From Alphaproteobacteria bacterium (GTDB lineage Bacteria; Pseudomonadota; Alphaproteobacteria; SHVV01): 64,000 nt of DNA. Each line of letters starts with the position of its first letter. Position 1 is the stretch's first letter. The position numbers were made by a program, and so were the translations under genes. Below are positions 29,352-62,099 of this stretch, piece by piece. Below the pieces are notes generated by a model that was given only the letters and a program-made list of their open reading frames with translations, searched no databases and had not been told where the DNA came from. The DNA is taken from positions 3,520,001 to 3,584,000 of the forward strand of contig OZ253470.1 in NCBI GenBank assembly GCA_965261735.1, read 5' to 3'.

Positions 29352-29356
29352 CCCGG

Positions 29357-30550: not shown

Positions 30551-30558
30551 CGAAAATT

Positions 30559-30742: not shown

Positions 30743-30840
30743 AAATTTCCGCGCCGAATAACAACCTGATGGAGAAATGCCGAAACCATCCTACAATCAG
30801 TTAACTTGACAAAGCCACTGTTAGTGTGACGGGCACCGGT

Positions 30841-35500: not shown

Positions 35501-35571
35501 CGACCCTGTCCCAGGCACCATCATTCGAGCCCAGGCGGGGTCCCCAGCGGGACCCCGCCCATGCCGTGCGC

Positions 35572-36591: not shown

Positions 36592-36669
36592 GCTTGGTCT
36601 CCCTTGCTATTGGCCGGTTGGTCGTCGTTCAGTCCACCGACGTGATTGGTGCTCGATTTTACAGTCTTC

Positions 36670-37170: not shown

Positions 37171-38435
37171 GCCGCCTCGCCCGCGACCTCGATACCCATC
37201 AGCTTGCAGTAATAGCGCCAGAAGCCGCGCACCGGCACCTCGGTGACGATATGGTCGTCGCTGACGATGGGGCCGAGGCCGCCCATCTCGATCACCGTGT
37301 GGCGGTCGGCCTGGCGGCGGATGCCCTTCTGGATCAGCACCGGCGCCTCGCCGTCCTCCATGTTGATGAATCCCGCCGGGCCACGCAGGTTGGCCTGCCA
37401 AAGGCGCATGGCGCGCAGTTCCGGATCGTCGTCGGTGTAGCCGAAGTGGGTGTAGTGGAGCTCGAATTCGTCGGGCCCGCTCGTGCGCACCTGTTCGGTC
37501 ATGAGCACGTTGTTCATTTGCGAGAACAGCACGTTGGGAAAGATCGACAGCCCTTCCAGAACGCGGCCGTCGCCGACTTCGTCGCGCCAGTCGAGGAACG
37601 AGGGGTCCTCCAGCTTGAGCGGGTGCTCGATCTGCGCCTCGCGCTCGGTGCCGGCGTAGCCCTCGGCGATGAGCTCGGGCGTGTCGGTATCGACCACCGC
37701 GTAGTAATGGTTGTGGCGCGCCTCGGCATCGAGGCTCATCGCCCCTTCCTGGGTCAGCCGGTGGATGCCGTAGGCCAGCGGCAGCAGGTGCAGTAGGCCG
37801 CCGTGGTAACCGTCGTTCACGTTCTCGCGGTAGAGCTTCCAGTTGCAGATCAGGCGCTGGCGCATGTATCCGAGAATCTCGATCGGCTTGCGGAACTTGC
37901 GATCGAGCGCAGCCAGCGCGGTCTCGCCGAGGAAATCCTCGAGGCTCTCCGCGTTACGGTCGAAGGTCGCGAAAACCACGCCGCGGTAGGTCGCGACCTC
38001 CAGGGTGCGCAAGCCGTGCTGGCCCTTGTCGAAGCTGTCGGGCATGCCGCCCTTGCCGTCGACCCCGCGCTGGAAGGGCACGCCGATCAATCGCCCGCGC
38101 AGGTCGTAGCACCAGTGGTGATAGATGCAGGTGTGGGTGGCCCGATTGCCGAAGGGCTCGCGCACCACCATCGAGCCGCGATGGGCGCAGCTGTTGACGA
38201 AGGCGTGAATGGAGCCGTCCTCGGCGCGGTTGACGGCCACCGGCGTATCGCCGACGTAGGTGGTCTTAAAGTCGCCGGAGTTGGGGATCTCGGCATCGAG
38301 GGCCAGGAAGTTCCACACCGGGCCGTGAAAGATGCGCTCCTGCTCGCGCTCATAGACGTCCTGGCTCAGATACACGCCGTAAGGCACGCGGCTGAAGTCG
38401 GATGCCGGCCAAGTCAGGTCGCTCCATGTCTGCAT
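37167..38435 (-). CDS. Rieske oxygenase alpha subunit (salicylate 5-hydroxylase/anthranilate/terephthalate group)
   Basis: Rieske CAH...CIYH; Fe site NVNDGYHGGLLH and EDG; SRVPY N-terminus; RGFWRYY C-terminus. Confidence 0.93.
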   Translation of the reverse strand: MQTWSDLTWPASDFSRVPYGVYLSQDVYEREQERIFHGPVWNFLALDAEIPNSGDFKTTYVGDTPVAVNRAEDGSIHAFVNSCAHRGSMVVREPFGNRATHTCIYHHWCYDLRGRLIGVPFQRGVDGKGGMPDSFDKGQHGLRTLEVATYRGVVFATFDRNAESLEDFLGETALAALDRKFRKPIEILGYMRQRLICNWKLYRENVNDGYHGGLLHLLPLAYGIHRLTQEGAMSLDAEARHNHYYAVVDTDTPELIAEGYAGTEREAQIEHPLKLEDPSFLDWRDEVGDGRVLEGLSIFPNVLFSQMNNVLMTEQVRTSGPDEFELHYTHFGYTDDDPELRAMRLWQANLRGPAGFINMEDGEAPVLIQKGIRRQADRHTVIEMGGLGPIVSDDHIVTEVPVRGFWRYYCKLMGIEVAGEAA

Positions 38436-38452
38436 GCTGACCGCTCCTCAAG

Positions 38453-38941
38453 CTACAGTGGCGAAGAAATGTGGTTGGCCACGGAAAATGTATCCAGCAC
38501 CACGAGCTTTTCCTTGAACTTGGGTTCATCCGCGACGAAGACGACTTTGTCGGCATAGCGGCCGGTGCTGAACATTTGCGTCGTGCCGTCGAGCAGATCG
38601 GTCACGTACACGGCGTAGTTGGCATCCACCTGATAGACCCCGTCCTCGGCAGCTGCGACGTGCACGTCGGTAACGATATGACGGTTGAGCCGCAGCGTGA
38701 AAACCGTGGCGCTGCGCAGGATGAGCACGCGATCGCGCAGTTGTTCCTTTCGGTCGCAGTCGATGACCGCGAGTGGCAAGCCATAGTCAGCGTTCTCGCG
38801 CGGCACGACACGATAGGTGCAGTCGTCGGCGAAAAAATCGGGCCACGCCTCCAGCCGGTCCTCGTCGATACACTGGGCGTAGGCGAATTCGAGATCGGCG
38901 ATGCGCTGCGCCGCAACGAGCCCTGCGAGCGCGTCGCTCAC
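38453..38941 (-). CDS. Aromatic ring-hydroxylating oxygenase beta subunit (second)
   Basis: YAQCIDEDRLEAWPDFF...PREN...LRDRV...GRYADK; GTGA overlap. Confidence 0.92.
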   Translation of the reverse strand: MSDALAGLVAAQRIADLEFAYAQCIDEDRLEAWPDFFADDCTYRVVPRENADYGLPLAVIDCDRKEQLRDRVLILRSATVFTLRLNRHIVTDVHVAAAEDGVYQVDANYAVYVTDLLDGTTQMFSTGRYADKVVFVADEPKFKEKLVVLDTFSVANHISSPL

Positions 38942-40212
38942 GCCGCCGGCCGCCTCGCCTGAGTGCGGAACCCCATAAGATCGCAGTAGTGGCGCCAGAA
39001 GCCGCGCACCGGCACCTCGGTAGTGATGTAGTCCTGGTCCGCAATAGCGCCGGTACCGCCCATCTCGATGACCGTATGGGCGTTGGGACTGCCGCGCATG
39101 CCGCGCTGGATGAGAACCCCGGATTCGCCGTCCTCGATGGAGATGATCCCGCCGGGGCCAAGCATACCCATCTGCACCAGGCGCATGCGGCGCAACTCTG
39201 GATCGTCGTCGGCGTACCCAAAGAACGTCCAGTACACCTCGAACTCGTCGGCACTTGTGGTGCGAATCTGCCGCGTCGCCATGGTGTTGGAGAACTGGTG
39301 CACGAGGAGATTGGGAAACACGGCGAGCACCATCACAGAGCGGCCATCCCCGATCTCGTCGCGCCAGTCGATGATCGCGGTGTCGGCAAGCTTGAGCGGG
39401 CTCGCGATCTTGGCGCCGTGGACGACCTCGCCGTAGCCCTCGGCCGCAGCCTCCGGCGTATCGGTATCGATCACGACGTGGTCGACGTGGTGGCGGCCGC
39501 GCTTGTCGAACACCATGCCCGCCTCGTGGGTCAACCGGTGAATGCCGAAGATGACCGGCAGCTGGTGGAGGAGTCCCGAGTGGTAGCCGTCGGCGACATT
39601 CTCCCAATAGGCCTTCCAGTTCGACGGCAGGCGCTGGCGCACGTGGCCGAGCACCTCGATCGGCTTGGACAGATAGCGGTCGAGAAAGTCGAGCACGGGC
39701 CGATCGAGGTACTCCTCGAGCGGCTCGACGTCGGCGTCGAACGAGCCGAAGACGAGGCCGCGGTAACTCGCCGTCTTCAGCGTCCGCAACCCGTGCCGCG
39801 CCCGATCGAAGCTCTCGGGCATGCCGCCGTGGCCGCCAACGCCGCGCTGGAACGGGACGCCTATCAGGTTGCCCTTCGGATCGAAGCACCAGTGGTGATA
39901 GATGCAGGTGTGGCTCGCGGCGTTGCCGCAGGGTTCGCGCACCAGCCTCGTGCCCTTGTGCGAGCAGCTGTTGAGGAAGGCGCAGACGGAGCCGTCCTCG
40001 GCGCGGGTCACCACCACGGGTGCATCACCGACGAAGACGCACTTGAAGTCCCCGGGCAGCGGGACCTCCGCCTCGAAAGCGAGAAAACACCACACCGGCC
40101 CTTGAAAGATGCGCGCCTGCTCGCGTTCGTAGACCCCTTGATCGAGGAACACGGGGTACGGCACGCGGCTGAAGTCGGCGGCCGGCCAGATCAGGCTATC
40201 CGGATCGTTCAT
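38938..40212 (-). CDS. Rieske oxygenase alpha subunit (second paralog)
   Basis: CSH...CIYH; NVADGYHSGLLH; EDG; colinear with 37167-38435. Confidence 0.93.
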   Translation of the reverse strand: MNDPDSLIWPAADFSRVPYPVFLDQGVYEREQARIFQGPVWCFLAFEAEVPLPGDFKCVFVGDAPVVVTRAEDGSVCAFLNSCSHKGTRLVREPCGNAASHTCIYHHWCFDPKGNLIGVPFQRGVGGHGGMPESFDRARHGLRTLKTASYRGLVFGSFDADVEPLEEYLDRPVLDFLDRYLSKPIEVLGHVRQRLPSNWKAYWENVADGYHSGLLHQLPVIFGIHRLTHEAGMVFDKRGRHHVDHVVIDTDTPEAAAEGYGEVVHGAKIASPLKLADTAIIDWRDEIGDGRSVMVLAVFPNLLVHQFSNTMATRQIRTTSADEFEVYWTFFGYADDDPELRRMRLVQMGMLGPGGIISIEDGESGVLIQRGMRGSPNAHTVIEMGGTGAIADQDYITTEVPVRGFWRHYCDLMGFRTQARRPAA

Positions 40213-40359
40213 GGCCTTGTCCGGCGGCGGAGCCAACGCCGGCTGCTGATTGAAGGATCGCGTTCCTCTTGGACCGAGTAGGCTAGCTTCCTCGCCCATC
40301 GCGGCGTTTGCCCTCCGAGCGCGTAACCTAATACAGGCACCGACAAAAGCCTGCCGCGC

Positions 40360-41532
40360 TCAAGAGCTTTGGTAGCGGTCGCCGTTGAGCGACTGCCACA
40401 CCAGGTTGTCAAAATGATGGGTGCCATGTTCGCTGCGCCACGAGTTCTCGGCGTCAACCATCAACCGCCCCTGGGTGTAGCCCAAAGCCTTGACGCCGAG
40501 GGCTTGGCGTTCGATTGCAGCGCGGTCCTGTGGGAACACGACCTCGTTGTAGTTGTCGAACTGGGCCTGATCGTGTGCGGTGGGCTGCTCGTGCTGGCAC
40601 AAATTGATCACGTGACGCTCGCAGGTCTCGGGCGAGATCGACATCGCGCGCAAAATCATGAAGTTCGGCGGGCCCTGCTCGGCAGTGAACACCATATTGG
40701 GCCACAGATACCAGATGTAGATGTCGATGATCTCGGCATCACCGAAACCGTAAGGCAGCTTGTCCTTGTGGTTTTCGATCAGGTCGCGGTTGCCGATGAT
40801 GCGGTGCTCCTGCCAGAACTCCTCCTCATGGGACTCCCAGCTCGTGGTGAGCGAGGCGTCGGACGTGGCCATTTGCTGCGGATGTATCACCGGGCAGTGG
40901 TAGCACTCCATACCATCGAGGATGAACTTCCAGTTCGCCTTGACGGGAAACGTCTTGCGCTGGGCGAAATGGAGATCGTCGAAGCGCGGGATGACGGCGC
41001 GGAAGCGTTCGAGCAGCCCGCCGGCCTGGCTCGCCAGCGACGGCGCCGCGCGATCGAGGTTGACGTAGACCATCGGTCCGAAGGCCTCGACCTGAATCTC
41101 ACTCAAGCAGAAATCTTCCAATCGAAAACCGGCAACATTCTCGGCGTTTCCGGCTGCCTTCAGGTTGCCGTGACCATCGTAGGTCCAGGCGTGGAAGGGG
41201 CACGTGATCATGCGCGCGTTGCCCTTGCCCTCGAGCAGGATGTGGCCGCGGTGCATGCACACGTTGTAGAAGGCGCGGAGTTCACCTGAGGCGGCGCGGA
41301 TGACGAAGACGGGCTGATCGAGAATGTTTGCGGCGATATAATCACCGGGCGCCGTGAGGTCGCCGAGATAACCTACGTACTGCCAGGTTTTGCACCAGAT
41401 CTCATCCTTCTCGGCGGCGAAGACATCGGGATCGTAGTAGTAGTACGCGGGCAAGGTCGCCGAGTGTCGCGCGTCGGCGTTGAATCTCGACTTAAATCCG
41501 TCGGATTCTTGGGCCAGCGGTGCTTTCCGCAC
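40360..41532 (-). CDS. Rieske oxygenase alpha subunit, choline monooxygenase/CntA-like (no beta partner)
   Basis: NVCMHRG...CPFHAW; NWKFILDGMECYHCPVIHP; QD; EHGTHHF. Confidence 0.9.
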   Translation of the reverse strand: MRKAPLAQESDGFKSRFNADARHSATLPAYYYYDPDVFAAEKDEIWCKTWQYVGYLGDLTAPGDYIAANILDQPVFVIRAASGELRAFYNVCMHRGHILLEGKGNARMITCPFHAWTYDGHGNLKAAGNAENVAGFRLEDFCLSEIQVEAFGPMVYVNLDRAAPSLASQAGGLLERFRAVIPRFDDLHFAQRKTFPVKANWKFILDGMECYHCPVIHPQQMATSDASLTTSWESHEEEFWQEHRIIGNRDLIENHKDKLPYGFGDAEIIDIYIWYLWPNMVFTAEQGPPNFMILRAMSISPETCERHVINLCQHEQPTAHDQAQFDNYNEVVFPQDRAAIERQALGVKALGYTQGRLMVDAENSWRSEHGTHHFDNLVWQSLNGDRYQSS

Positions 41533-41608
41533 GTCCGCGCCTCCTCAGCGTCATCACGCCGCTTAGTGTTGCTGGCGCAGATCGGTGGGTCAAGCCAGCG
41601 ATTGCCGG

Positions 41609-42436
41609 TCAGCCTAATACAAAACTAATCATGAGCCGATTGAACTTGTCCGCGTACTCTGATTGCGGCTTGTGATCGCACGCGTCGAAGATCTCGACTC
41701 GGCAATCCGGCATGCGGCCTTGACCCTCGAGCGCCCGCTGCCAGCTGGCGCGAGGATCGTGGCGACCGATCACGACCAGCGTAGGGACGTTCATCTCCGC
41801 GAGCCGGTGGCGCACGTGCCACTCGGGATCGTCGGCGGAACGAACCACGCCCTCGATCGTTTCGGTGAAGGCCTGCTGCCGTCCCGGTAGCGCGAACGCC
41901 GTGAGCTGGCTCAGGATGATCTCCTCGAACACATCGCCCTTGAGGTAGCTGGAGCCGATATTGCGTTCGCGAATCATCGCCGCCGAAGGCGCCGCCAGCG
42001 CCGCGGATTGGTTGGCCTGTGCGTCGCGCGCGGCTTTTTCGAGTTCCTCGGGCGTGTCGAACACCGGCGCGCCCACAAGCACGAGCTTGTCGAGCTGATG
42101 TGGCCGTTCGAAATAGGCGAGGGCGCTGATCATGCCGCCGAACGAACTACCAGCCAGCGTGTAACGATCCATGCCGAGCCGGTCGACGAAGCCGAACAAG
42201 TGCTGGAGCTGTACCTCCTGTGGCACGGCATCCGCCATATCGATCGAGTCGGAATAGCCGTGGCCGATCAGGTCCAGGGCGTAGACCGAAAAATGCTCGG
42301 CCAGGGCATCGATATTGCGCACCCACGTGTCCGCGGCAGCTCCCACACCGTGCACGAGAACGAGATTCGGACCGCTGTCCCCGCCATGGTAGTAGCGGGT
42401 GCGGATGCCATTAACCGGGACGAACGAAGCGCGCAT
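41609..42436 (-). CDS. Alpha/beta hydrolase (meta-cleavage hydrolase-like)
   Basis: LVHG, DLIGHGYS, GSSFGG nucleophile elbow, GRHD and CDHKPQSE. Confidence 0.88.
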   Translation of the reverse strand: MRASFVPVNGIRTRYYHGGDSGPNLVLVHGVGAAADTWVRNIDALAEHFSVYALDLIGHGYSDSIDMADAVPQEVQLQHLFGFVDRLGMDRYTLAGSSFGGMISALAYFERPHQLDKLVLVGAPVFDTPEELEKAARDAQANQSAALAAPSAAMIRERNIGSSYLKGDVFEEIILSQLTAFALPGRQQAFTETIEGVVRSADDPEWHVRHRLAEMNVPTLVVIGRHDPRASWQRALEGQGRMPDCRVEIFDACDHKPQSEYADKFNRLMISFVLG

Positions 42437-42769
42437 AAGACGCCCGCGATGTTGGGGCGACGGAGACTCCGGGACACTTTCACATTGGCGAAGCCGAGCA
42501 AAGCAAAACAGGATTCTCCGCCGTCGATGCGGCGTTCAACGCACGCATCGCTGGAAGGACGAGGAGACCGACGGGCGATGAACTGACCGGCTATGTTTCA
42601 GCCCGAAGACCGCGCCACGCCCGAGCGCGGAATAGGCCTCAGCGGCACTGGTTTTGAGCAGCGCACCCCATCCACCCTGATGAACGGCATGCGCAACGGC
42701 GGCGGGTTTACGCACATGGGTGGATACGTGTTCGCGAAGCGCAGCGAGTTTCGGCCGTGCGCTGAAAGC

Positions 42770-42992
42770 TTGATGACCCCATCCCGATCAATATCGAACC
42801 GCTCAAAAGGGCGGCTACTGCGCCATTCCTCGCGCGTGAGGTTGCCGTCACCATTTGTGTCCTGTTGGGACATGACCTTTTGGGCTGTGGGACGGGCCTC
42901 TTGAGAATTGGCCCGATCAACTGCCAGATTGGCGGCCAAGGCCGCAAAGAACAATAGTTGCTCATACGATCTGCGAAGGCGATTGTGCATGA
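42770..42992 (-). pseudogene. EF-hand protein remnant
   Basis: DTNGDGNLTREE and DIDRDGVI loops; reading frame broken. Confidence 0.5.
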
Positions 42993-43030
42993 TGTTCGTG
43001 ACAACACCCGTTCGCCCGACGTCGGCGCGG

Positions 43031-44479
43031 GATCGTGTCCCGCGGAGTGGTGTAAGAGCGTTGCGCTCTACGCGGCTCCCGGCGTGTAGGGCCGGGACGT
43101 TCAGGCTGCCACGGTGGGCAGCGTGATGGGGACACCATCGCTCAGCGGAGCGATGGATTCCAGCGTCATGTATCTCCTTGAGACGGCCCACTCGTCGTTC
43201 TGCTCGAGAAGGATGGCGCCGACGAGCCGTGTGATGGCGGCTTCGTTGGGAAAGATACCGACGACGTTGGTGCGACGCTTGACCTCGGCATGGAGCCGTT
43301 CGATCGGGTTTGTGGAGTGCAATTTCTGACGGTGCTCCCTGGGGAAGCTCATGTAGGCGAGGACGTCGTGCTCGGCTTCGTCCATGAGAACTGCCAGCTT
43401 GGGCACCTTGGGCCTGAGCTGGTCGGCGACCTGGCGCCACTGGACCTTCGCGCTGTCGGCGTCCTCCTGGGCGAAGGCGGTGGCGACGAAGGCGGAGACG
43501 ACGCGCCGGCCCTGGCGGCCGGCATGGGCCAGCAGGTTGCGGGCGAAGTGCACGCGGCAGCGCTGCCATGTGGCGCCGAGGATCCGGGTCGCGGCGGCCT
43601 TCAGGCCCTTGTGGTCGTCGGAGATCACCAGCTTCACGCCGCGCAGCCCGCGCCGGGCCAGCGAGCGCAGGAACTCGGTCCAGAAGGTCTCGGCCTCCGA
43701 CGCGCCGATCGCCACGCCCAGGACCTCGCGGCGGCCTTGGTCGTTGACGGCCACAGCCACGGTCACCGCGACCGAGACGATGCGTCCGGTCTGGCGCACC
43801 TTCACGTAGGTGGCGTCGAGCCACAGATAGGGCCAGTCGCCCTCCAGCGGTCGATCGAGGAAGCCGGTGACCTTATCGTCGATCTCGCCGCACAGCCTGG
43901 AGACCTGGCTCTTGGAGGCGCCCGACATCCCCATCGCCTGAACCAGATCGTCGACCGAGCGGGTCGACACCCCCTGGATGTAGGCCTCCTGGATCACCGC
44001 AGCCAGCGCCTTCTCGGCCATCCGCCGCGGCTCCAGGAAGCCCGGGAAGTAGCTTCCCTTCCTCAGCTTCGGGATCTTCAGCTCGACCGTGCCGGCCCGC
44101 GTCTCCCAGGACCGGTCGCGGTAGCCGTTGCGATGGGTGATACGATCCGCCGAGCGCTCGCCGTGCCCGGCGCCGGTCAGGCCCTCAACCTCCAGTGCCA
44201 TCAGCCGCTCGGCCGTGAAGCCGATCATCTCGCAAAGCAGATCGGCATCGGAGCTCTTCTCCAAAAGCGCGCGCAGGGTCATCATGTCCTGGGTCATCGT
44301 GGTTCTCCTTCGGGTCAGGTTGGTTTGCACTAGCCCAACCCTAAACCGGAACCGCGATGGCCTCCGCTGTGGATAGCCGGCTTGCCTACGCCAGACTCTC
44401 GGCGGTCGCTACGGCAAGCCGCCTACCCACAGCTACCAGAGGCTCCAACAACTCCTACACCACGTCCTGGGACACGACC
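43031..44479 (-). mobile_element. IS256-family element C, copy 2 (complete, 1449 bp)
   Basis: IRs GATCGTGTCCC / GGGACACGACC; 8-bp TSD CGGCGCGG. Confidence 0.93.
43101..44297 (-). CDS. IS256-family transposase C
   Basis: [22 protein letters not shown] and STNPIERL; AAGGAG RBS before MTQDMM. Confidence 0.93.
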
Positions 44480-44610
44480 CGGCGCGGCCTTTACTCATGG
44501 TACGCGATCCGCTGCGCTACAGCACTGAGACAGCAGACAATATCAAAGCCGGACTAGCCGGTGCGAGCCTATCACTGGGTGTCCCGGGCCGACGGCGGCA
44601 TCGCCGGTCA

Positions 44611-44743
44611 GGTCCGCTCCCTAAGGTGAAGCAGACGAAATCGGGAGCAAAGCAGACGTTGCCGCTCGAAGGTCGGCTCTCGGGGGTAGAGCGGTCGGTC
44701 AGGCGACCTGTTCCGAGGTTCGCCTCCTAGCCACAACCGGACT
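44611..44743 (+). repeat. Dispersed hairpin repeat, copy 2 (GTCCGCT..AAGC[A/G]GAC units)
   Basis: Three imperfect hairpin units; homologous to 34187-34265. Confidence 0.5.
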
Positions 44744-44754
44744 TAACCTGCCGA

Positions 44755-45052
44755 CCGGGTCGTTGCCAAGGTGGAAGGGCATCCCGGCGAGCTGTATCCG
44801 CGCGTCGGGCTCATCGTCACCAACCTGAGCCGCCCCGCTGAGCGGGTGGTGGCCTTCTACAATCGGCGCGGCACAGCGGAGCAGCACATCAAGGAGGGCA
44901 AGAACACCAGCAAGTGGACGCGCCTGTCGTGCCGCAGCTTCCGCAACGACGCCGTCCGGCTGCAGGTGCACGCTCTCGCCTACAATCTCGGCAACTTCCT
45001 GCGCATCCTGGGGTTGCCGGGTGCCGTGGAGCAGTGGTCGCTAACGATGCTC
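44755..45052 (+). pseudogene. IS1380-family transposase C-terminal fragment
   Basis: RVVAKVEGHPGELYPRVG...GTAEQHIKEGK...LAYNLGNF, homologous to 23060-23360. Confidence 0.8.
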
Positions 45053-49767: not shown

Positions 49768-50850
49768 CTAGTGGATTGATTCCAACGTTTGGAACCCTCT
49801 GTTTCGTGCGGCGATGATATGATCGGGGTCGGCTTTCCAGATGAAGGGTTTTGGGTTTGCGTCATTGTATTCGCGGACAAATCGGTTGATGGCGTCCTGA
49901 AGGTCGACGACGGATTGGAAGACGCCGTATTTGAGCCTGCGCCGCGTTAGTTTGGCGAAGAAGCCCTCGACGGCATTGAGCCACGAGCACGAGGTTGGCG
50001 TGAAGTGGAAGGTCCAGCGTGGATGGCGGGCGAGCCAGGCGCGGACCTTGTCCTTCTTGTGCGCGGCGTAGTTGTCGAGGATGACGTGGACGGCCTTGTC
50101 CGTCGGCACCTCGCGCTCGATGCGGTTGAGGAAGCGGATGAACTCCTGATGGCGGTGGCGCTGCATGTTCTGTGCGATGACCGTACCGTCCAGCACGTTG
50201 AGCGCGGCGAACAGCGTCGTCGTGCCATGCCGTTTGTAATCATAGGTCATCGTACCGGCGCGGCCCTTCTTCATCGGCAAGCCGGGTTGGGTGCGGTCGA
50301 GCGCCTGGATCTGTGATTTCTCATCAACCGACAGCACCACGGCATGGGCCGGCGGATCGACATACAAGCCGACGATATCTGTGAGCTTCTCGGCGAAGGC
50401 GGGATCATTGGAGAGCTTGAAGTGCCGCCAGCGGTGCGGGCTGAGGCCATGGGCCTTCCAGATCGCTTGGACCGTCGACGCCGCGACGCCAGCAACCTTC
50501 GCCATCGCGCGCAGCGTCCAGTGGGTCGCCTCGTGCGGCGGCGCTTGCTGGGTCAGGCGGACGATCTCGGCGACGCGCTCCGGCGGGATCGGCGCTTTGC
50601 CAGGCGGACGGGACCTGTCGCGAAGCAAGCCGTTGACACCCTCGTGCATGAACCGCTCCTGCCAGCGCCAGACACAGGTCTTGGACTTGCCGGTCTCGGC
50701 CATGATCGACGAGTTCCCGAGCCCCTCGTCGCTCTTCAGGATGATCCGCGCCCGCCAGACATGTTTCTGCGAGCTCTTCGGGTCCGCGACGATAGCTTGC
50801 AATCGCTGACGGTCGCCAGACGTGACAGTAAAATGGATGCCGGTGCGCAT
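49768..50850 (-). CDS. IS630-family transposase
   Basis: SVDEKSQIQAL, YKRHGTTTLFAAL, ILDNY and SWLNAVEGFF; the stop codon lies in the target CTAG. Confidence 0.92.
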   Translation of the reverse strand: MRTGIHFTVTSGDRQRLQAIVADPKSSQKHVWRARIILKSDEGLGNSSIMAETGKSKTCVWRWQERFMHEGVNGLLRDRSRPPGKAPIPPERVAEIVRLTQQAPPHEATHWTLRAMAKVAGVAASTVQAIWKAHGLSPHRWRHFKLSNDPAFAEKLTDIVGLYVDPPAHAVVLSVDEKSQIQALDRTQPGLPMKKGRAGTMTYDYKRHGTTTLFAALNVLDGTVIAQNMQRHRHQEFIRFLNRIEREVPTDKAVHVILDNYAAHKKDKVRAWLARHPRWTFHFTPTSCSWLNAVEGFFAKLTRRRLKYGVFQSVVDLQDAINRFVREYNDANPKPFIWKADPDHIIAARNRGFQTLESIH

Positions 50851-50922
50851 AGCACAGACTCGCATGACACCGCACAATACGGAATCTCAAATCGGACTCT
50901 TTCGTTCCGATCAATCCACTAG
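49768..50922 (-). mobile_element. IS630-family insertion sequence
   Basis: CTAGTGGATTGAT IR at both ends with duplicated CTAG. Confidence 0.92.
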
Positions 50923-52435: not shown

Positions 52436-53326
52436 CTACACCTCGCGCGCCACGCGACCTTCCTCGCCGAACAGGCCGTGCGGGCGGAGCAGCAGAATGG
52501 CGACCATCCCGGCGTAAGCCACGAGGTCACGATAGGTCGACCCGCCGAGGCCGACCGCCAGTGTTTCCATAACGCCGAGGATCACCCCGACATAAAGACA
52601 TCCTCTCATGTTGCCGATGCCGGCGACGATGAGGACGACGATCCCCTTGAGGCCCAGCACCAGGCCGACGAAGGGGTAGGTCGAGCCGAAGGTCATCGCG
52701 TTGAGGATGCCGGCGACGCCGGCGAGTGTCGCGCTGACGGCAAAGCCGAGGACGATGACGCGATCGGTGTTGATCCCGACGCACTTGGCGATATCCGGGC
52801 TTTGGGCCAGGACGCGGATCGCCTTGCCCGGGCCCGTACCGCGCAGAAACAGAACCATGCCGACCATCACGCTGACCGATAACAGGATCAGCACGACCTG
52901 CGTGTCCGAGACCTCGAGCTGGCCGATCAGCGCGTAGTAGGTCGGCTCGAAGGGGCGCGGGACGATCTTGGGATCGCCGTCGGTAATGACGGTGACCAGG
53001 TTCTCCAGGAAGAGCGCGGCCCCCAGGGTCGCCACTTTGGTGTTCCACCAGTTGCCGCGCAGCGGCCTCACGGCCAGGCGTTCGACCAGCAGGCCCGTCA
53101 CCATCGCCAGCGCGATCCCGACGACGGCCGCGAGCCAGAAATTCTCAAGGCCGAAATAGTAGGCCAGCAGGAGGCCGTAAGAGCCGACCATCATCGTCGC
53201 GCCATGCGCGAGATTGAGCACGTTCATGGTGCCGAACACGAGGTTGAAGCCGATCGCGACGATGGCGTAGATCGCCCCGGTGGAGATACCGATGAAGATC
53301 TGCTCGGCTAGATAGCCAACCTGCAT
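52436..53326 (-). CDS. livH: Branched-chain amino acid-type ABC permease
   Basis: GAIYAIVAIGFNLVFGTMNVLNLAHG, GKAIR and LLLRPHGLFG. Confidence 0.88.
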   Translation of the reverse strand: MQVGYLAEQIFIGISTGAIYAIVAIGFNLVFGTMNVLNLAHGATMMVGSYGLLLAYYFGLENFWLAAVVGIALAMVTGLLVERLAVRPLRGNWWNTKVATLGAALFLENLVTVITDGDPKIVPRPFEPTYYALIGQLEVSDTQVVLILLSVSVMVGMVLFLRGTGPGKAIRVLAQSPDIAKCVGINTDRVIVLGFAVSATLAGVAGILNAMTFGSTYPFVGLVLGLKGIVVLIVAGIGNMRGCLYVGVILGVMETLAVGLGGSTYRDLVAYAGMVAILLLRPHGLFGEEGRVAREV

Positions 53327-53521
53327 GTCCGCACCCCTAGCCAGCTCCCCGGCTGGCCCTGCACGCCGCGGTGCGTCCCGGCACGAGGGCGCCGGCGGCC
53401 GCGGCGCCCGATAATCCGGCGTATCGTGTGCTGATGCAAGGTCTGCGGCCGGACCGCTCCGGCGCCCGGGAGCGCGGGTCGACTTGTCGCGAAGCCCACC
53501 ACCCGGTAACGACGGCGTTGT

Positions 53522-53943
53522 CTAGGGCACGACGGTAAAACCCTCACGCTGTGCGGCGGTGGCCAGCCTCTCGTCAAGGCAGACGAAGCCGAGCGCGCCG
53601 GGGTCATCTCCGGCGGCGACGAGACCAGCGGCAAGCTGAAGCGAATCCGACGCCCGCAGGGCGTGCGTCCGCAAGACTCGGAGGGCTAGGACGCGGACCT
53701 TCGTCGACGGGTCACCTCCACCCAGGATGGCTCCAGCGCCCGCAGGCGGGCCATCGTGGCGTTCGCGGCCGCAACCGAGATATCACCCGCGCGTTCCCGC
53801 CGTGCGACGGCGGAGGCGCACTCGACCGGCGTGCCCCACCACACGATCATGCCGCCATCGGCTTTGAGCATACCGAGCAGGTTCTCGCGCGCCGGCTCAG
53901 CAACGAGCAGCGGTACGACGGCGGAGCTATCCCAGAACTTCAG
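53522..53943 (-). pseudogene. vapC: VapC PIN-domain toxin, frameshifted
   Basis: KFWDSSAVVPLL...TPVECASAVARRERAG; LRASDSLQLAA in another frame; no ATG/GTG start. Confidence 0.75.
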
Positions 53944-54190
53944 CGGTCCTCCACTCTTTCTTCGAGGAGCGCCGCCAGCACGCTGCGCCGGGAGCGCTCC
54001 GGATCCGCCATCAGGAGCTTGAGCGGCACCGGCTGCGAGGGCCGGCGGACGAGGCCGGCGTCCTCCAGCCCCGCGAGGCGCTCGTCGGCGCCGGCCACCC
54101 CGCCGACGCGCTCGATGCGCGCGATCGGCCGGTTCCGCTCGAATACGAGCACGGTCTCGCGCAGGCGCTTGAGCGCGGCCGTGAAATCTG
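53940..54190 (-). pseudogene. Phd/YefM-type antitoxin, 5' degenerate
   Basis: ETVLVFERNRPIARI...LAALLEER, overlapping vapC by 4 nt. Confidence 0.65.
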
Positions 54191-54229
54191 CTCCACTTTT
54201 TCGGCGGAGTCGACGCGAGGGATGTGGCG

Positions 54230-55894
54230 ATGACGAACGAGCTGATGAATCCGTGCGGTGAGTTCACGCACCGGGAAATGCCCCTGGCACGGCGCCCCGG
54301 CCTCGGCGCGGGCAGCACCGTCGGGCTGCTCCACAATGGCAAGAGGAATGCCGATCGGTTGGTCGAAGACGTGGCCGCACTGCTCAGCGAGCGCGTCGGC
54401 GGCCTCAAATTCGTGCGCATGGGTAAGGAATCCAGTGTGCCGGCGGACTTTTCCGCCGGCTTCCTGGAGGAGTGCGATCTCGTCGTCGCCGCGCTCGCGG
54501 ATTGAGGCTCGTGCACGTCGTGGTGTATCCATGACACAGTCTTCTTGGAAACGCAGGGCATAGCGACCGCGACGCTGTGCACCGACGAGTTTCATTCGCT
54601 GGGCAAGGCGGAGGCCGAGATCCTCGGCATTCCCGGCCTGCCGCTGGTCATCATCCCGCACCCCATGGCCAAACGGCGGCCCGACGAGGTCGCCGAAATC
54701 GCCGCCGGCGCGATCGACGAGATCGTCGCCGCCTGGACCGGCGATCCGGCCGAATTGTCGGCAACCTATGCGGCGCGAGTCCCCGACCAACTCGCCCGTC
54801 TGCGCTATCATTCGTTGTTCGAGGGCAATTTCAGCGCGCCCGATGCGCCGGAAACCTTCGGCGCGCCAGACGGACTCGACGCCGTCAACACCCTGTTGCA
54901 GCGCCGAGGCTGGACCGATGGTCTGCCGGTGGTGCCGCCGACCCGGGCGCGCTGGGAAGCCATGCTGGGTGACTGGAACAAAGAGGACCTCCTCGGCCTG
55001 ATCGAGCCCAAGTTGGGTCGCGCCACGGCCGGGAGAGTCGCGGCCAACGCGGTGATGGCCGGTGCGCACCCCGAGCAGTTTCCCGTGCTCGCCGCTGCCG
55101 TGCGGGCCGTGACCGAAGCGCCGCTCAACCTCAAGTCCCTGCAAGCCACAACCCATCCCTGCACCGTGATGATGATGATCAATGGGCCCGTAGCCGAGCG
55201 GGTTGGCGTCAACGCGACCTACAACCTGATGGGCCAGGGCCGCCAGGCCAACGCGGCTCTCGGGCGCGCGCTGCGCTTCGTACTGCTCAACATCGGCGGC
55301 GCCACCCCGGGCGTGCTCGACCGCGCGACCATGGGCACGCCGGCGAAGTACACCTTCTGCTTTGCCGAGAACGCAACCGACAACCCGTGGCAGCCGCTAC
55401 ACGTGGAGCGCGGCTTCCCGGCCGAGCAAAGCACCGTCACCGTGGCCGGCGTGGAAGGGCCGCACAACGTCAACGACCACTACGGCCGAACCGCCGAGGA
55501 AGTGCTGCTGACGGTTGCCGGTACCCTCGCCACGACGGGCTGCAACAACGCCTACATCGGCGGCGAGATCATCGTCGTGCTGGGGCCCGAACACTGCGAG
55601 ATCATCGCCCGCGACGGCTTCTCGAAGGGCGATGTGAAGCGCTTCCTGCTCGAGCGCGCGATCGTGCCGGGCTGGCACATTTCGGAGGCCCAGGGCGAGG
55701 CCATGGCCGCGCGCGTTCCCGAGCGCTTCATCGGCGCCGACTGGCGCCAGGGCGTGCGCATGTTCTCGCACCCGGACGACGTGGTCGTGGTGGTCGCCGG
55801 CGGCGCCGGCCGGCACTCCTGCATCATCCCCTCGTTCGGCTACACGAGGTCGGTCACGGTACCGATCACCGACGCGACGGGGGCGGCGCTGTAG
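54230..55894 (+). CDS. UGSC-motif selenoprotein (Sec at TGA 54503-54505) fused to a GWTDGLPVVPPT-type domain, 554 aa
   Basis: The ORF-track pieces 54224-54505 and 54545-55894 are in one frame separated only by TGA: VAALAD-U-GSCTSWCIHD. GAGGGA RBS before ATG 54230; SECIS-like hairpin 11 nt downstream of the TGA. Confidence 0.85.
54517..54535 (+). promoter_or_regulatory. Putative bacterial SECIS element
   Basis: Stem GTCGTGG / CCATGAC (7 bp, one G-U pair) with loop TGTAT, starting 11 nt after the in-frame UGA. Confidence 0.65.
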
Positions 55895-55918
55895 GCCTCT
55901 TCGGGTGAGGGACCAGCG

Positions 55919-56422
55919 CTAGTCTTCCGGCGCGGCGGAGCCGTAGGCGCCGCGGAAGAACAGCAGCGGCTGATAGCGGGAGTCGCGCCAAACCCGCAGC
56001 ACGCGGCAGACGAAGATCACGTGGTCGCCGCCATCGTACTGGTGCCAACCCTCGCACTCGAACACGGCAAGCGAATCATTGAGGACGGGGCAACCGGTGG
56101 CGCCGAGGCGGTGGGGCAGGTCGCGCCACTTGTCGGTCAGGGCCGTCGCGAACCGCTCCGACAAGCTGCGCTGATGGGCGGCCAGTACATTCACGGCAAA
56201 GTGCGAGGACCGCTGGAAGGCGTCAACGCTATTGAGCGACCGCGCCAGGCTGAACAGTACGAGCGGTGGCTCGAGAGAGACCGAATTGAACGAGTTCACC
56301 GTTACGCCGCAGGGCTCCGCGGAGTCGTCGCGACAGGTGACGATTGTCACCCCTGTGGCAAAGCAGCCCAGCGCCTCCCGTAGGACACGCGGATCGGGTG
56401 CCGACGGTTCGACAGCTTTCAT
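55919..56422 (-). CDS. Flavin reductase (HpaC/RutF family)
   Basis: LREALGCFATGVTIVT, TVNSFNSVSLEPPLVLFSL, GGDHVIF and PLLFFRGAY. Confidence 0.93.
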   Translation of the reverse strand: MKAVEPSAPDPRVLREALGCFATGVTIVTCRDDSAEPCGVTVNSFNSVSLEPPLVLFSLARSLNSVDAFQRSSHFAVNVLAAHQRSLSERFATALTDKWRDLPHRLGATGCPVLNDSLAVFECEGWHQYDGGDHVIFVCRVLRVWRDSRYQPLLFFRGAYGSAAPED

Positions 56423-56645
56423 GCGTGCCTTCCCTCGCGGCTCCGCGCGTTACCGGGTCGTCTCGGCGCGCTGGCGTGGGACCACCTTGACGACCTCGGG
56501 CGCGTCGATCAACAGGGTCTTTTCCAGGCCGCGCGATAGATCATGTTGCCGCCAATTGACAACGAACACGGTGGATGCGTTCATGCGGCCTTGCCGCTAC
56601 ATGGCAAAGGAAAGCCCCCCCAGCAGGGCCTCGGGTGATGACGGC

Positions 56646-57530
56646 ATGACCGACGAAGGGGATATCAAGTACATCGATGTCGAGGGCATACGTACTCGAT
56701 ATTTCGAGAAGGGGAAGGGCGAGCCGCTCGTATTGATCCACGGCGGCGCCATGGGCACAGGCTCATCGCTTGGCATTTTTGGAGAGAACCTTGATGCACT
56801 CGCCAGGTCTTTCCATGTGTTTGCCTTCGACAAGATCGGCCACGGTTACACGGACAATCCAGAGACTGACGACGACTACACCATCGAGCGCATGACTGCG
56901 CACGCCTACCAACTCATTCGCGCCGTGGGGTTGGACAGAACAAACCTGATCGGGCAATCGAGGGGAGCGTTCAACGGCGTGTCACTGTGCCTCGACTACC
57001 CGGAGCTGGTCCACGGTTTCGTGCTGTGCAACAGCGCGTCGATGACGCCCGGGGTCGCCGCAATCCCGCCCTTTAGCAAAAAGGCCAGGGCGGAGGCGCC
57101 GTTCGAGGCCGGAACCAAAGAGTGGGTGAGGTATCGCTCCGAGATCATGTGCTACTCGAAGGCGTGCGTGAGCGATGATTACGTGGACGAGTGGCACAAG
57201 GTCTATCACCTGCCGAAGTCGACGGTGGCGCGCGAGAAGATGAAGACCTTGGGCCCCGGCCTTTTCGAACCGGGCTTCGATGCCGTCAAGGAGCGCGAGC
57301 TCGCGCGCATCCGCGAGGGTGCGCTGCGTGTCCCGACCCTGGTTCATTGGGGTAAGAACGATCCGTCGGCCGCGTTGGACCCGATGGGCTATAGCGTGTT
57401 CAATCTCCTGTCGGAGAACGCTGCCGAAGTGTCGATGTACGTGGCCAACCAGGCCGGGCATTTCGCCTTCAAGGAAAAGCACGCCGATTTCAATCGCGTC
57501 GTGACCGGCTTCTTCGAGTCGCTTGACTGA
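56646..57530 (+). CDS. Alpha/beta hydrolase (C-C or C-N hydrolase-like)
   Basis: LIHGG, FDKIGHGYTD, GQSRG elbow, WGKND and AGHF. Confidence 0.88.
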   Translation: MTDEGDIKYIDVEGIRTRYFEKGKGEPLVLIHGGAMGTGSSLGIFGENLDALARSFHVFAFDKIGHGYTDNPETDDDYTIERMTAHAYQLIRAVGLDRTNLIGQSRGAFNGVSLCLDYPELVHGFVLCNSASMTPGVAAIPPFSKKARAEAPFEAGTKEWVRYRSEIMCYSKACVSDDYVDEWHKVYHLPKSTVAREKMKTLGPGLFEPGFDAVKERELARIREGALRVPTLVHWGKNDPSAALDPMGYSVFNLLSENAAEVSMYVANQAGHFAFKEKHADFNRVVTGFFESLD

Positions 57531-57548
57531 CGCGCGGCAACGGGAGGG

Positions 57549-58595
57549 ATGACTATGCAGATGGCAGACTCGGCGTTAACGCCGCTGTTCATGGAGGAGT
57601 TCAAGTGGTGCAAGGTGGGGGCGAACGAGAGCGTCGCCATCGTCACGGAATCGGAATCGCGCTGGCAGTATGCGCAGGCGGCCCAGACCGCCTTGGCCGC
57701 CATTGGGGCGCGCGCGTTCCAAGTGATGTTGCCCAGTACATCGGCCGAGCAGACCGGGACACCCCGCATCCAGAGGGGCGGCGCGAGCTCGGTGGTGCTC
57801 GATGATTTTCCCGAGGTCACCGAGCTCCTGAAGGGAGTCGATTTCGTCGTCGACCTCAGCCTCGAGGGCCTGCTCCACTCGAAACAAAGAGGCGAGATTC
57901 TCGGGAGCGGCACGCGGACGCTACTGATCAAGGAGCCCCCCGATGCCCTCGCCAGGCTGCTGCCGACGGAGGAGCGCAGCCGGCGCATCGATCAGGCCGT
58001 GGCGCGCTTGAGTGATGCGGCGGAGATGACGGTAACGTCGGAAGCCGGGACGAACTTTCGGGTCGATCTGCGCGGCGGCATCGTCAAAGGCGCCTACGGC
58101 TACTGCGACAAGCCGGGAACGTCGGCGACCTGGGCGACCTGCGCGGTGATTGCCTACCCCTCGTCGCTGGAGGTCAATGGCGACGTCGTGCTGGCGTGCG
58201 GCGACATCGTGTTCCCCTTCTACCGCTACATAGAGAGCCCCGTGACCCTGCGCTTCAAGGACGGCTTCGTCGAGGAGGTCGCGGGTAGCGGACTGGATGC
58301 CGAACTCATGCGCGACTATTTCGGGCGCTGGAACGACCGCAACGCCTACGGCATCTCGCACGTCGGCTGGGGGCTGCACGAAAGGGCGCTGTGGGATGCG
58401 CTGGCGTTCTACGGCAAGGAAGCCGCGGGCGTCGACGGCCGCAGCTTCGAGGGCAACTTCCTTATCTCGACAGGTCCCAACTACGCGGCGAACCGGCACA
58501 CGCCCTGCCACTTCGACATCCCCATGCGGAACTGCAGCATACATGTGGACGGGAAACCGGCGGTGCTGGAAGGAAAGGTCGTGGGCAACGCCTAG
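57549..58595 (+). CDS. 2,5-dihydroxypyridine 5,6-dioxygenase (NicX)-like / M29-fold protein
   Basis: VTSEAGT, SHVGWGL, DGRSFEGNFLISTGPN and CHFDIPMRNC (His-His-Asp metal triad as in NicX). Confidence 0.8.
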   Translation: MTMQMADSALTPLFMEEFKWCKVGANESVAIVTESESRWQYAQAAQTALAAIGARAFQVMLPSTSAEQTGTPRIQRGGASSVVLDDFPEVTELLKGVDFVVDLSLEGLLHSKQRGEILGSGTRTLLIKEPPDALARLLPTEERSRRIDQAVARLSDAAEMTVTSEAGTNFRVDLRGGIVKGAYGYCDKPGTSATWATCAVIAYPSSLEVNGDVVLACGDIVFPFYRYIESPVTLRFKDGFVEEVAGSGLDAELMRDYFGRWNDRNAYGISHVGWGLHERALWDALAFYGKEAAGVDGRSFEGNFLISTGPNYAANRHTPCHFDIPMRNCSIHVDGKPAVLEGKVVGNA

Positions 58596-58616
58596 GCCCG
58601 GAAGGAGAGACGACCG

Positions 58617-59657
58617 ATGCAGTATGCGGTGTTCATGAATTTCCAGTGCCGCGACGGACAGGACTACAACTCGCTCTACCGCAGCCGGCTCGAGGAGGCG
58701 GAGTGGGCCGAGAAGCTCGGGTTTTACGGGGTGTTTCTCGCCGAGCACGCGTTTTGCGAGCACGGCCGCCCCTCACCCGCGGTCACGCTCGCCAACATGG
58801 CCGCGCGGACCAGCCGCCTGCGGCTGGGTACGGCCGTCAGCGTCCTGGCCTGGCACAATCCGCTGGAGGTCGCCCAGGACTACGCGACGCTCGATATCAT
58901 GTCGGAGGGCCGCGTCGATTTCGGCGTCGGGCGCGGCGGGTTCAAGCGCGAGTTCGACGGCTACGGCGTCGACTGGGTGGAGTCCCAGCCGCGCTACCTC
59001 GAGGCCCTCAAGATCATCCTGCAGGCTTGGAAGGGAGAGCCGTTCTCCTACGACGGCGAGTTCTTCAAGATTCCCGAGGTCGCGGTCAATCCGGTGCCGG
59101 TTCAGCGCCCGCATCCGCCGCTATGGCAGCCCACTCTCTTTCCCGCATCCATGCATGCGGTCGTGCCCCAAGGCATAACGCCCATCGTCGGCGCATCCTT
59201 CAGCCCGCTGCACGTCGTCAAGAAGAACTTCGAGCACCTTGCCGAGGCGATGGAGAATGCGGGGCGGACCGACATGTGCCGGGTCGGCCACCCGCTCATC
59301 TTCCTCAGCGACACGGTCGAGAAGGCCCGCGAGGAGGCAAGAGAGGGCGTCGAGTGGCTGGTCGACGACTTCGCCGGCATTTTCGAGCTGCCCGAGGGCG
59401 AGGTCTATCCGGAGCAGTTCAAGGGTCGCGAGAAGATGGCGCAGTACGTGCGTTCGCTGACCTACGAAAAGATCGTCGAGGAGGACCTGATGTGGATCGG
59501 CGACCCGAACTACGTCACCGACCGCTTGCGCTGGCTGCGCGACGAGTGCGGCGCCAATTTCATTATCTCGAACATGAGCCCCGGCGGCATGGAGCACGAG
59601 AAGGTCGCGAAGTCGATGGAGCTACTAGCAACAAAGGTGATGCCGCAACTCGCATAG
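58617..59657 (+). CDS. Luciferase-like (LLM) flavin-dependent monooxygenase
   Basis: LAEH, MAARTSRLRLGTAV, LDIMSEGRVDFGVGRG, PVQRPHPPLW and SMELLATKVMP. Confidence 0.92.
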   Translation: MQYAVFMNFQCRDGQDYNSLYRSRLEEAEWAEKLGFYGVFLAEHAFCEHGRPSPAVTLANMAARTSRLRLGTAVSVLAWHNPLEVAQDYATLDIMSEGRVDFGVGRGGFKREFDGYGVDWVESQPRYLEALKIILQAWKGEPFSYDGEFFKIPEVAVNPVPVQRPHPPLWQPTLFPASMHAVVPQGITPIVGASFSPLHVVKKNFEHLAEAMENAGRTDMCRVGHPLIFLSDTVEKAREEAREGVEWLVDDFAGIFELPEGEVYPEQFKGREKMAQYVRSLTYEKIVEEDLMWIGDPNYVTDRLRWLRDECGANFIISNMSPGGMEHEKVAKSMELLATKVMPQLA

Positions 59658-60585: not shown

Positions 60586-60649
60586 TGAAGCGGTGGCCGT
60601 CCCGGGCATTTAGCGTCCTGGGCCCCCGCGCCATATCCCCTCGGGCGCC

Positions 60650-62099
60650 GATCGTGTCCCGCGGAGTGGTGTAAGAGCGTTGCGCTCTACGCGGCTCCCG
60701 GCGGGTAGGGCCGGGACGTTCAGGCTGCCACGGTGGGCAGCGTGATGGGGACACCATCGCTCAGCGGAGCGATGGATTCCAGCGTCATGTATCTCCTTGA
60801 GACGGCCCACTCGTCGTTCTGCTCGAGAAGGATGGCGCCGACGAGCCGTGTGATGGCGGCTTCGTTGGGAAAGATACCGACGACGTTGGTGCGACGCTTG
60901 ACCTCGGCATGGAGCCGTTCGATCGGGTTTGTGGAGTGCAATTTCTGGCGGTGCTCCCTGGGGAAGCTCATGTAGGCGAGGACGTCGTGCTCGGCTTCGT
61001 CCATGAGAACTGCCAGCTTGGGCACCTTGGGCCTGAGCTGGTCGGCGACCTGGCGCCACTGGACCTTCGCGCTTGTCGGCGTCCTCCTGGGCGAAGGCGG
61101 TGGCGACGAAGGCGGAGACGACGCGCCGGCCCTGGCGGCCGGCATGGGCCAGCAGGTTGCGGGCGAAGTGCACGCGGCAGCGCTGCCATGTGGCGCCGAG
61201 GATCCGGGTCGCGGCGGCCTTCAGGCCCTTGTGGTCGTCGGAGATCACCAGCTTCACGCCGCGCAGCCCGCGCCGGGCCAGCGAGCGCAGGAACTCGGTC
61301 CAGAAGGTCTCGGCCTCCGACGCGCCGATCGCCACGCCCAGGACCTCGCGGCGGCCTTGGTCGTTGACGGCCACAGCCACGGTCACCGCGACCGAGACGA
61401 TGCGTCCGGTCTGGCGCACCTTCACGTAGGTGGCGTCGAGCCACAGATAGGGCCAGTCGCCCTCCAGCGGTCGATCGAGGAAGCCGGTGACCTTATCGTC
61501 GATCTCGCCGCACAGCCTGGAGACCTGGCTCTTGGAGGCGCCCGACATCCCCATCGCCTGAACCAGATCGTCGACCGAGCGGGTCGACACCCCCTGGATG
61601 TAGGCCTCCTGGATCACCGCAGCCAGCGCCTTCTCGGCCATCCGCCGCGGCTCCAGGAAGCCCGGGAAGTAGCTTCCCTTCCTCAGCTTCGGGATCTTCA
61701 GCTCGACCGTGCCGGCCCGCGTCTCCCAGGACCGGTCGCGGTAGCCGTTGCGATGGGTGATACGATCCGCCGAGCGCTCGCCGTGCCCGGCGCCGGTCAG
61801 GCCCTCAACCTCCAGTGCCATCAGCCGCTCGGCCGTGAAGCCGATCATCTCGCAAAGCAGATCGGCATCGGAGCTCTTCTCCAAAAGCGCGCGCAGGGTC
61901 ATCATGTCCTGGGTCATCGTGGTTCTCCTTCGGGTCAGGTTGGTTTGCACTAGCCCAACCCTAAACCGGAACCGCGATGGCCTCCGCTGTGGATAGCCGG
62001 CTTGCCTACGCCAGACTCTCGGCGGTCGCTACGGCAAGCCGCCTACCCACAGCTAACAGAGGCTCCAACAACTCCTACACCACGTCCTGGGACACGACC
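60650..62099 (-). mobile_element. IS256-family element C, copy 3 (transposase frameshifted)
   Basis: Both IRs present; extra T near 61074 (GCTTGTCGGC versus GCTGTCGGC); flanks do not match. Confidence 0.92.

Follow-up and report, generated by a model that had tools for sequence, protein, structure and literature searches.

Does a reading frame interrupted by a single in-frame TGA on an alphaproteobacterial contig encode one selenoprotein, and, if so, what reaction might that protein carry out? The frame lies in a stretch of 64,000 nucleotides (positions 3,520,001 to 3,584,000 of contig OZ253470.1, assembly GCA_965261735.1), which we refer to as the window and whose numbering is used throughout (Table 1). 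Gene calling with translation table 11 yields two ORFs here, 54224–54505 (93 aa) and 54545–55894 (449 aa, with a TTG start), and the initial annotation had interpreted them as a hidden selenoprotein in which a UGSC domain is joined to a second, uncharacterized domain. The particulars of that interpretation were borne out: the two ORFs share one frame and are parted by a single TGA, which is codon 92 of 554; a ribosome-binding site precedes the complete frame; the downstream piece starts at TTG; and all of the C-terminal motifs quoted are found in the translated protein. Read through, the context of the TGA is VAALAD-U-GSCTSWCIHD. The locus is a real selenoprotein gene, one more member of the UGSC family, and, judging from comparative sequence data, it is almost certainly translated through UGA as selenocysteine (Sec) into one 554-aa protein.

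Table 1. Features of the fused UGSC-partner locus and its surroundings, in window coordinates
Feature	Position	Strand	Details
Fused UGSC-partner selenoprotein gene (predicted)	54230..55894	+	554 aa; 69%-identical full-length Cys homologue P0003
Shine-Dalgarno-like GAGGGA	54217..54222	+	Sequence; 7 nt ahead of ATG at 54230
In-frame TGA, predicted Sec92 of U-G-S-C	54503..54505	+	Single internal TGA, codon 92; Cys95 at 54512–54514
UGSC domain, residues 5–170	54242..54739	+	PF24696, NF041046; flavodoxin/Rossmann-like alpha/beta fold (predicted)
SECIS-type hairpin	54517..54535	+	7-bp stem, 54517–54523 with 54529–54535; 5-nt loop, conserved GU
Inter-domain linker	54740..54841	+	Residues 190–198, pLDDT < 50
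Partner domain ("Unknown_1"), residues ~205–550	54842..55879	+	Invariant D230, R346, E380
Flavin reductase (−), alpha/beta hydrolase, NicX-like 2,5-dihydroxypyridine dioxygenase, LLM oxidoreductase	55919–59657		NicX-like: 7cn3, E 8e-67
Three Rieske oxygenase alpha subunits, small subunits, NMT1/THI5-like binding protein, amidohydrolase, hydrolase	34388–42436	−
Many ORFs, presumably transposase-like	23325–33430, 42598–45000, 49768–50877, 60610–61950
Three short frames	53525–54197	−

The host genome (5.03 Mb in one contig, 98% complete) contains selA (C1:4566981), selB (C1:4568370), and selD (C1:1504014), each above its cut-off, as well as a tRNA-Sec (C1:1506220–1506315), which together make up the set that the initial annotation had proposed to look for. 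Homologues were drawn from 160 related loci, the best 80 of at least 587 genome stretches plus the best 80 of at least 565 metagenome stretches, a sample skewed toward relatives of the fused protein, with kin and duplicates kept in. Among the 158 UGSC-domain matches in these loci, the site codon is TGA in 132, TGC in 10, and TGT in 1, with neither TAA nor TAG in any (the motif pattern took only a stop or Cys, and the remaining 15 matches fell outside it). Because 132 TGA and 11 Cys codons occur with no TAA or TAG, the pattern is beyond chance, and TGA is the sole stop seen in this column across phyla. The homologue P0003 (554 aa, 69% identity over its full length) has Cys at position 92, and the 16 full-length fusions without a stop have Cys (13), Ile (2), or Ser (1) at that site; Trp, Arg, and Gly, the residues that had been named as signs of a plain nonsense mutation, occur in none of these 16. 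The expected Sec/Cys pairing at the TGA is thus what the homologues display. Most of the best 120 homologue matches are fragments of 398 to 473 aa, since standard gene calling splits such genes.

Three full-length UGSC-partner fusions (P0134, P0192, and P0207) have neither Sec/Cys nor the second Cys and are possibly non-catalytic subunits. Relatives that appeared to have two TGA codons were considered as carriers of a second Sec, an idea we rejected for the three loci inspected, where the pair consists of the Sec codon and an ordinary stop. The host genome holds no paralogue of the fused protein. Two other likely selenoprotein genes, at C1:926707 (+) and C1:2873195 (−), have the motifs W-U-P-Y-C and T-P-G-U, and from these motifs we take their products to be peroxiredoxin-like; both come from a genome-wide hairpin scan that was too noisy to rely on, with 216 candidates.

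The SECIS-type hairpin begins 11 nt past the UGA; such spacing and a GU in the loop are traits of bacterial SECIS elements. Across 55 distinct TGA forms, its pairing is kept at 93.5%, with 20 cells changed on both sides; none of 500 shuffles (a control that ignores relatedness) pairs as highly, and controls slid along the sequence are at most 49% paired. The loop GU is present in all 59 TGA forms, and AGC occupies the place in 8 of 9 Cys forms, those eight being kin. The Cys forms, taken as a control, still pair at 81%, because the protein itself constrains the sequence. Considered as a single sequence, the hairpin is no more stable than its shuffles (z −0.8), and Rfam has no match in 53300–56700.

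The TGA is identical in contigs assembled from four of four runs from four other studies (X5, X6, X8, and X11). These contigs span 54159–54532 with zero or one differing letter, none within the codon, and end 27 nt beyond it, short of the 31-letter bridging rule; the comparison omitted X1–X4, which are possible source runs. Because all four runs from other studies agree at this codon, it is not an assembly error. Contigs of three runs (X6, X8, and X11) carry 143 extra bases at 54159–54160, a site 70 nt ahead of the UGSC start that also falls in the start region of the divergent gene; their absence from the window is either a strain deletion or an assembly collapse, and the promoter of the fused gene may be affected. 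No sigma-70-like promoter was found in 53300–56800. It is hardly credible that the TGA marks a nonsense mutation or assembly error, or that only the downstream ORF is translated, starting at its TTG: an Ala at partner position 279 and the upstream bases present in other strains are what such a broken gene could claim, but the Sec machinery is complete, the Sec column admits only TGA stops across phyla, the hairpin covaries, the same TGA recurs in four other studies, and Ala279 also occurs in the Cys twin P0003 and in further close relatives.

What, then, are the two halves of this protein? The first belongs to the UGSC family, with residues 5–170 scoring 160.2 bits against PF24696 (cut-off 25) and 137.4 bits against NF041046 (cut-off 125). 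In all 55 aligned rows, K38, K66, D91, U92, G93, D102, F121, and P145 are invariant, and Cys95 is kept in 54. The predicted structure of the domain resembles flavodoxin, Rossmann, and periplasmic-binding alpha/beta folds, tied at Z 8.8 to 11 among the 50 listed matches, and a thioredoxin-like alignment reaches 0.5% in profile comparison. The UxxC redox-type motif of the initial annotation is therefore to be kept in part: it is present as U-G-S-C, but profiles and the listed matches of the model suggest that it sits in a flavodoxin/Rossmann-like, GrdB/PrdB-like module rather than in a thioredoxin-type fold. A PDB sequence search with the whole protein returned no matches at E values up to 10; Foldseek on the full-length model was also tried and gave nothing clear.

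By profile comparison, the UGSC domain is homologous to the Sec-bearing end of GrdB and PrdB. HHalign aligns its residues 79–171 to the GrdB/PrdB Sec module, at 96.7% (E 4e-10 over 87 columns, with the two Sec positions aligned) against 25 GrdB sequences from Bacillota, a shallow set (Neff 1.8), and still at 90% with Cys masked, while 13 control alpha/beta families score no higher than 20.5%. With 16 PrdB-like sequences of the host's class as the target, the value is 87.9% (P 3e-6), again with Sec aligned to Sec; masking of all Cys leaves 85%, 30 column shuffles reach at most 1.1%, and the 13 control families reach at most 3% against the PrdB-like set and 19.9% against UGSC. A single-profile HMM search of those 16 sequences with the UGSC profile gave no match. 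The homology is limited to about 90 residues and does not fix the chemistry. PF07355, a model made up mostly of the pre-Sec part, matches neither the fused protein nor its genome and is matched in other genomes; PF09338 (pyruvoyl proprotein GrdE/PrdA) matches neither the partner domain nor the genome, nor any control genome either. Among 151 genomes from the host's class, 13 carry PrdB-like genes (L106–L122), and the 16 that were read comprise 12 TGA and 4 Cys forms. No statement of the UGSC-GrdB link was found in the openly available text of the papers searched.

Nothing in Pfam, NCBIfam, or the PDB matches the sequence of the second half, which we call the partner domain; a PDB profile search gave three insignificant matches to TIM barrels. 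The domain belongs to a large family, with 8,513 clusters at 50% identity (E up to 0.001), that has no Pfam or NCBIfam model. Over 81 diverse rows, D230, R346, and E380 are invariant, followed by N341 and C279 (80 each), N273 (79), D364 (78), and C377 (75). Position 279, the most conserved Cys of the family, is Ala in the fused protein; it is Ala or Leu in 14 of 97 alignment rows, all of which, other than the fused protein itself, come from its close clade, and all 14 keep Cys311 and Cys377. From the alignment, Ala279 reads as a trait of this clade and not as decay. The domain is modeled with high confidence (pLDDT 96.4, pTM 0.94), yet no fold among 48,161 representatives reaches Z 8 (the best, a chorismate mutase, has Z 5.3), and among 975 Foldseek-ranked chains the best is again chorismate mutase (Z 5.8, rmsd 3.0, about 90 residues); structural background usually lies at Z 7 to 8, and the absence of a match does not show a new fold. 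We also considered an internal repeat, which found no support (P 0.07), and homology to the fumarase alpha subunit, which was rejected after profile-profile comparison with 25 such sequences (P 0.26 to 0.38). Tandem partner-partner fusions occur (P0122–P0124, P0132, P0138, P0142, and P0239) and suggest that the partner works as a dimer.

Evidence that these halves belong together comes from their distribution. In 136 of 160 loci, UGSC either adjoins the partner or is fused to it, the arrangements being a thioredoxin-partner fusion ahead of UGSC (70), the partner ahead of UGSC (33), a UGSC-partner fusion (20), UGSC ahead of the partner (12), and both orders (1), and the 24 loci without an adjacent UGSC include some on short contigs. 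As the initial annotation had stated, the partner is usually a separate neighboring gene (separate and adjacent in 116 of 160 loci, fused with UGSC first in 20). The best 150 of the 8,513 partner clusters consist of the partner alone (80), a post-TGA fragment plus partner (35), the full UGSC-partner fusion (15), thioredoxin-partner (9), tandem partner (7), and partner-UGSC that ends immediately ahead of the Sec site (4); fusion is thus known in both orders, with 15 full-length representatives having UGSC first and 4 having the partner first. A structure prediction of the fusion, which had been suggested as a check, is confident over its full length (pLDDT 91.9, pTM 0.90) and for that reason suggests that the domains are held in a fixed arrangement. 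Given this adjacency, the two orders of fusion, and the model, the earlier proposal that the two domains form one enzyme is very probably correct.

In 92 of 160 loci, the partner carries a fused CxxC thioredoxin-like domain, and a gene with the CxxCD motif of thioredoxin reductases is present in 10 of 100 loci, 7 of these 10 being close kin. The fused protein of the window has neither a thioredoxin domain nor a reductase neighbor; a narrow thioredoxin-reductase motif pattern found no match in the genome, which shows no absence. Distribution is patchy, at 9 of 61 relatives and 4 of 301 genomes of the phylum, both counts including the host genome. In loci of Actinomycetospora and Pseudonocardia (L009, L011–L013, L015, L016, and L020), two TGA-containing UGSC genes occur together with three copies of the partner and a thioredoxin-reductase-like gene.

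Genomic surroundings bear on the substrate. On one side of the fused gene lie a divergent short gene pair and LivH/LivM-type permeases; on the other lie a convergent flavin reductase and then a hydrolase, a NicX-like dioxygenase, and an LLM oxidoreductase. Because it is flanked by a divergent gene and a convergent gene, the fused gene is probably transcribed alone. The three short frames immediately upstream may be an antitoxin gene and a PIN-type toxin gene that a frame change has split; Pfam has no match for any of the three pieces. The genes downstream, from the flavin reductase to the LLM oxidoreductase, could be a unit for the catabolism of N-heterocycles, and we tried to link the fused gene to them; the link found no support, with a NicX-like gene near 0, an LLM gene near 13, a flavin reductase near 5, and a hydrolase near 5 of 167 related loci. 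The wider region is rich in insertion sequences and Rieske oxygenases: the first Rieske gene has 43 tblastn matches in the genome, and an MFS transporter gene is interrupted at 49768–50877 by a transposase-like ORF.

No third gene is constant across loci, the largest neighbor cluster (29 and 66 cluster representatives were scanned) being short-chain dehydrogenases (SDRs) in 20 of 160 loci. Recurrent neighbors are SDRs, LLMs, CoA ligases and transferases, enoyl-CoA hydratases, acyl-CoA dehydrogenases, amidohydrolases, sel genes, and thioredoxin-reductase-like genes; where regions are annotated, and around the close fused relatives, TRAP/TTT transporters and LarA-like, fumarase alpha-like, and aconitase X genes join CoA transferases and acyl-CoA dehydrogenases. 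In 7 of 24 plasmid records examined, the flanking genes include CoA transferases (3), acyl-CoA dehydrogenases (3), and TRAP/TTT transporters (4). The close fused relatives L123 and L124 (51%), which may come from one organism, are set among DUF6282, LarA-like, and fumarase alpha-like genes. DUF6282 adjoins or lies near the pair in this bacterial fused clade and in two haloarchaea (L234 and L236). As raw counts, the neighboring genes point, softly, to organic acids.

With slightly less than even confidence, we favor a selenoenzyme, recycled by thioredoxin, that would reductively cleave a carbon-heteroatom bond of a small organic acid and that would amount to a miniature, pyruvoyl-free Stickland reductase. 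The partner would bind and activate a small anionic organic substrate, suggested because K38, K66, and R346 are invariant and the neighbors are organic-acid genes; this would probably be a carboxylic acid whose alpha carbon bears N, S, or O. The Sec92 selenolate would attack that carbon and expel the leaving group to form a selenoether, a step proposed because the Sec of GrdB/PrdB attacks a substrate carbon and forms a selenenylsulfide, according to the available text of PMC11229817 and PMC10298544. Cys95 would then resolve the selenoether, releasing the reduced product and leaving an Se-S bond, which thioredoxin and thioredoxin reductase would reduce again; thioredoxin is put forward as reductant because of its fusion to the partner in more than half of the loci and the reductase-type gene in a tenth of those surveyed. 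Ala279, the 3 of 16 fusions with Ile, Ile, or Ser in place of Sec/Cys, and the want of a conserved third gene all count against reductive cleavage, as do the short reach of the GrdB homology, the negative single-profile HMM search, and the lack of a thioredoxin domain or reductase neighbor in the fused protein.

The same UxxC, thioredoxin fusions, and reductase neighbors would fit equally well with a plain thiol/selenol oxidoreductase, in which Sec92 and Cys95 attack S or O, not carbon, and reduce a disulfide, sulfoxide, persulfide, or peroxide held by the partner, with thioredoxin recycling the pair. This is the published view, as far as the available text of PMC2398784 goes, and it gains from the conserved partner cysteines 279 and 377 and from sulfur-related genes at some loci (ComA in L028, L138, and L234; DsrE, TusA, and a cysteine desulfurase at L239). 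We nevertheless regard it as unlikely: the UGSC fold does not look thioredoxin-like in structural or profile comparison, its sole detected homologues are the C-N-cleaving GrdB/PrdB modules, and a partner of 350 residues in which D, R, and E are invariant points to a more specific chemistry.

Covalent catalysis without net redox is less probable again. Here, Sec would add reversibly to an unsaturated or activated acid, as in a cis-trans isomerase, racemase, or lyase, and thioredoxin would merely keep the site reduced. Isomerases, epimerases, and hydro-lyases do recur nearby (LarA-like, MmgE/PrpD, aconitase, and fumarase alpha-like), some Cys forms (L028, P0135, and P0158) are missing the second Cys, and the window itself has a NicX-like dioxygenase and a hydrolase; a pathway with such enzymes yields maleate-like acids. 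But Cys95 is retained in all rows except one, the frequency of thioredoxin fusion suggests stoichiometric reduction, two genes of the maleate isomerase family are present elsewhere in the genome, and the NicX-like gene has no counterpart near the related loci.

It is very improbable that Sec92, Cys95, and the partner cysteines are metal or Fe-S ligands in a hydro-lyase-like enzyme: Foldseek's top-ranked match to the partner is a class I Fe-S fumarate hydratase (E 1.3e-4), and the Methanocaldococcus alpha subunit can be aligned over 187 partner residues (Z 4.0), but the Foldseek superposition has a TM-score of 0.26 and an rmsd of 17 Å, Z 4.0 is background, the fumarase alpha profiles do not support the relationship, and Cys279 is missing here.

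Reductive cleavage by way of a selenoether remains the reading that we carry forward. In its broader form, UGSC plus partner may constitute an undescribed class of selenoenzyme, joining a GrdB-type selenium nucleophile to an activating domain of unsolved fold, a proposal that we make tentatively; that members of this class would cleave carbon-heteroatom bonds of small organic acids via thioredoxin and free of pyruvoyl is put forward with like reserve. The likeness to GrdB provides a concrete enzyme hypothesis for an abundant, catalogued selenoprotein family and names an intermediate to trap, making an old orphan family testable. Should the proposal be true, Stickland-type selenium chemistry would extend beyond anaerobic clostridia to aerobic bacteria of water and soil and, in Cys form, to haloarchaea. 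One polypeptide holds both parts, and its natural Cys form (69% identity) avoids the need for Sec expression, so this single-chain protein and its Cys twin would be the simplest handle on the class.

The fusion type is not new. A "UGSC/Unknown_1" fusion was already in print in 2008 (the GOS paper, PMC2398784, Fig. S1A), with the same domain order as the fused protein, in which Unknown_1 likewise lies C-terminal to UGSC in one frame; by eye, the printed Unknown_1 segment corresponds to residues 271–326, and its single Cys marked as conserved is Ala279 in the fused protein and its closest clade. The available text of that paper deems the UGSC fold likely to be thioredoxin-like and assigns no function, and the family is listed without a function in the portions available of PMC1976440, PMC9312934, and PMC13188914. 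The GrdB-like module, the flavodoxin-like fold, and the unmatched fold of the partner are absent from the papers searched and are properties of the family, not special to this locus.

Compared with known systems, the fused protein has in common with the UGSC family (NF041046, PF24696) the D-U-G-S-C motif, Cys homologues, and Sec machinery, and it differs in having the partner in the same chain, as in 20 of 160 loci in this order. The partner domain bears a weak, partial structural resemblance to the alpha/beta units of Bacillus chorismate mutase and YjgF, with no sequence support, and aligns with the alpha subunit of Methanocaldococcus class I fumarate hydratase over 187 residues (Z 4.0, rmsd 5.0). 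With GrdB and PrdB (PF07355), UGSC has in common a module (strand-U-x-x-C-helix, E-x-x-G-x-P, and P-H-P, with Sec aligned) and the need for a larger partner subunit. In the available text of PMC11229817, the Sec of PrdB attacks proline at its alpha carbon while this substrate is bound to the PrdA pyruvoyl group, and replacing U by C leaves PrdB inactive; in that of PMC10298544, glycine reductase forms a carboxymethyl selenoether and a selenenylsulfide, and its reductant is thioredoxin. The UGSC protein, in contrast, is without the N-terminal region of GrdB, its partner has no detected similarity to GrdB, and its family occurs in aerobes and haloarchaea, the latter as Cys forms.
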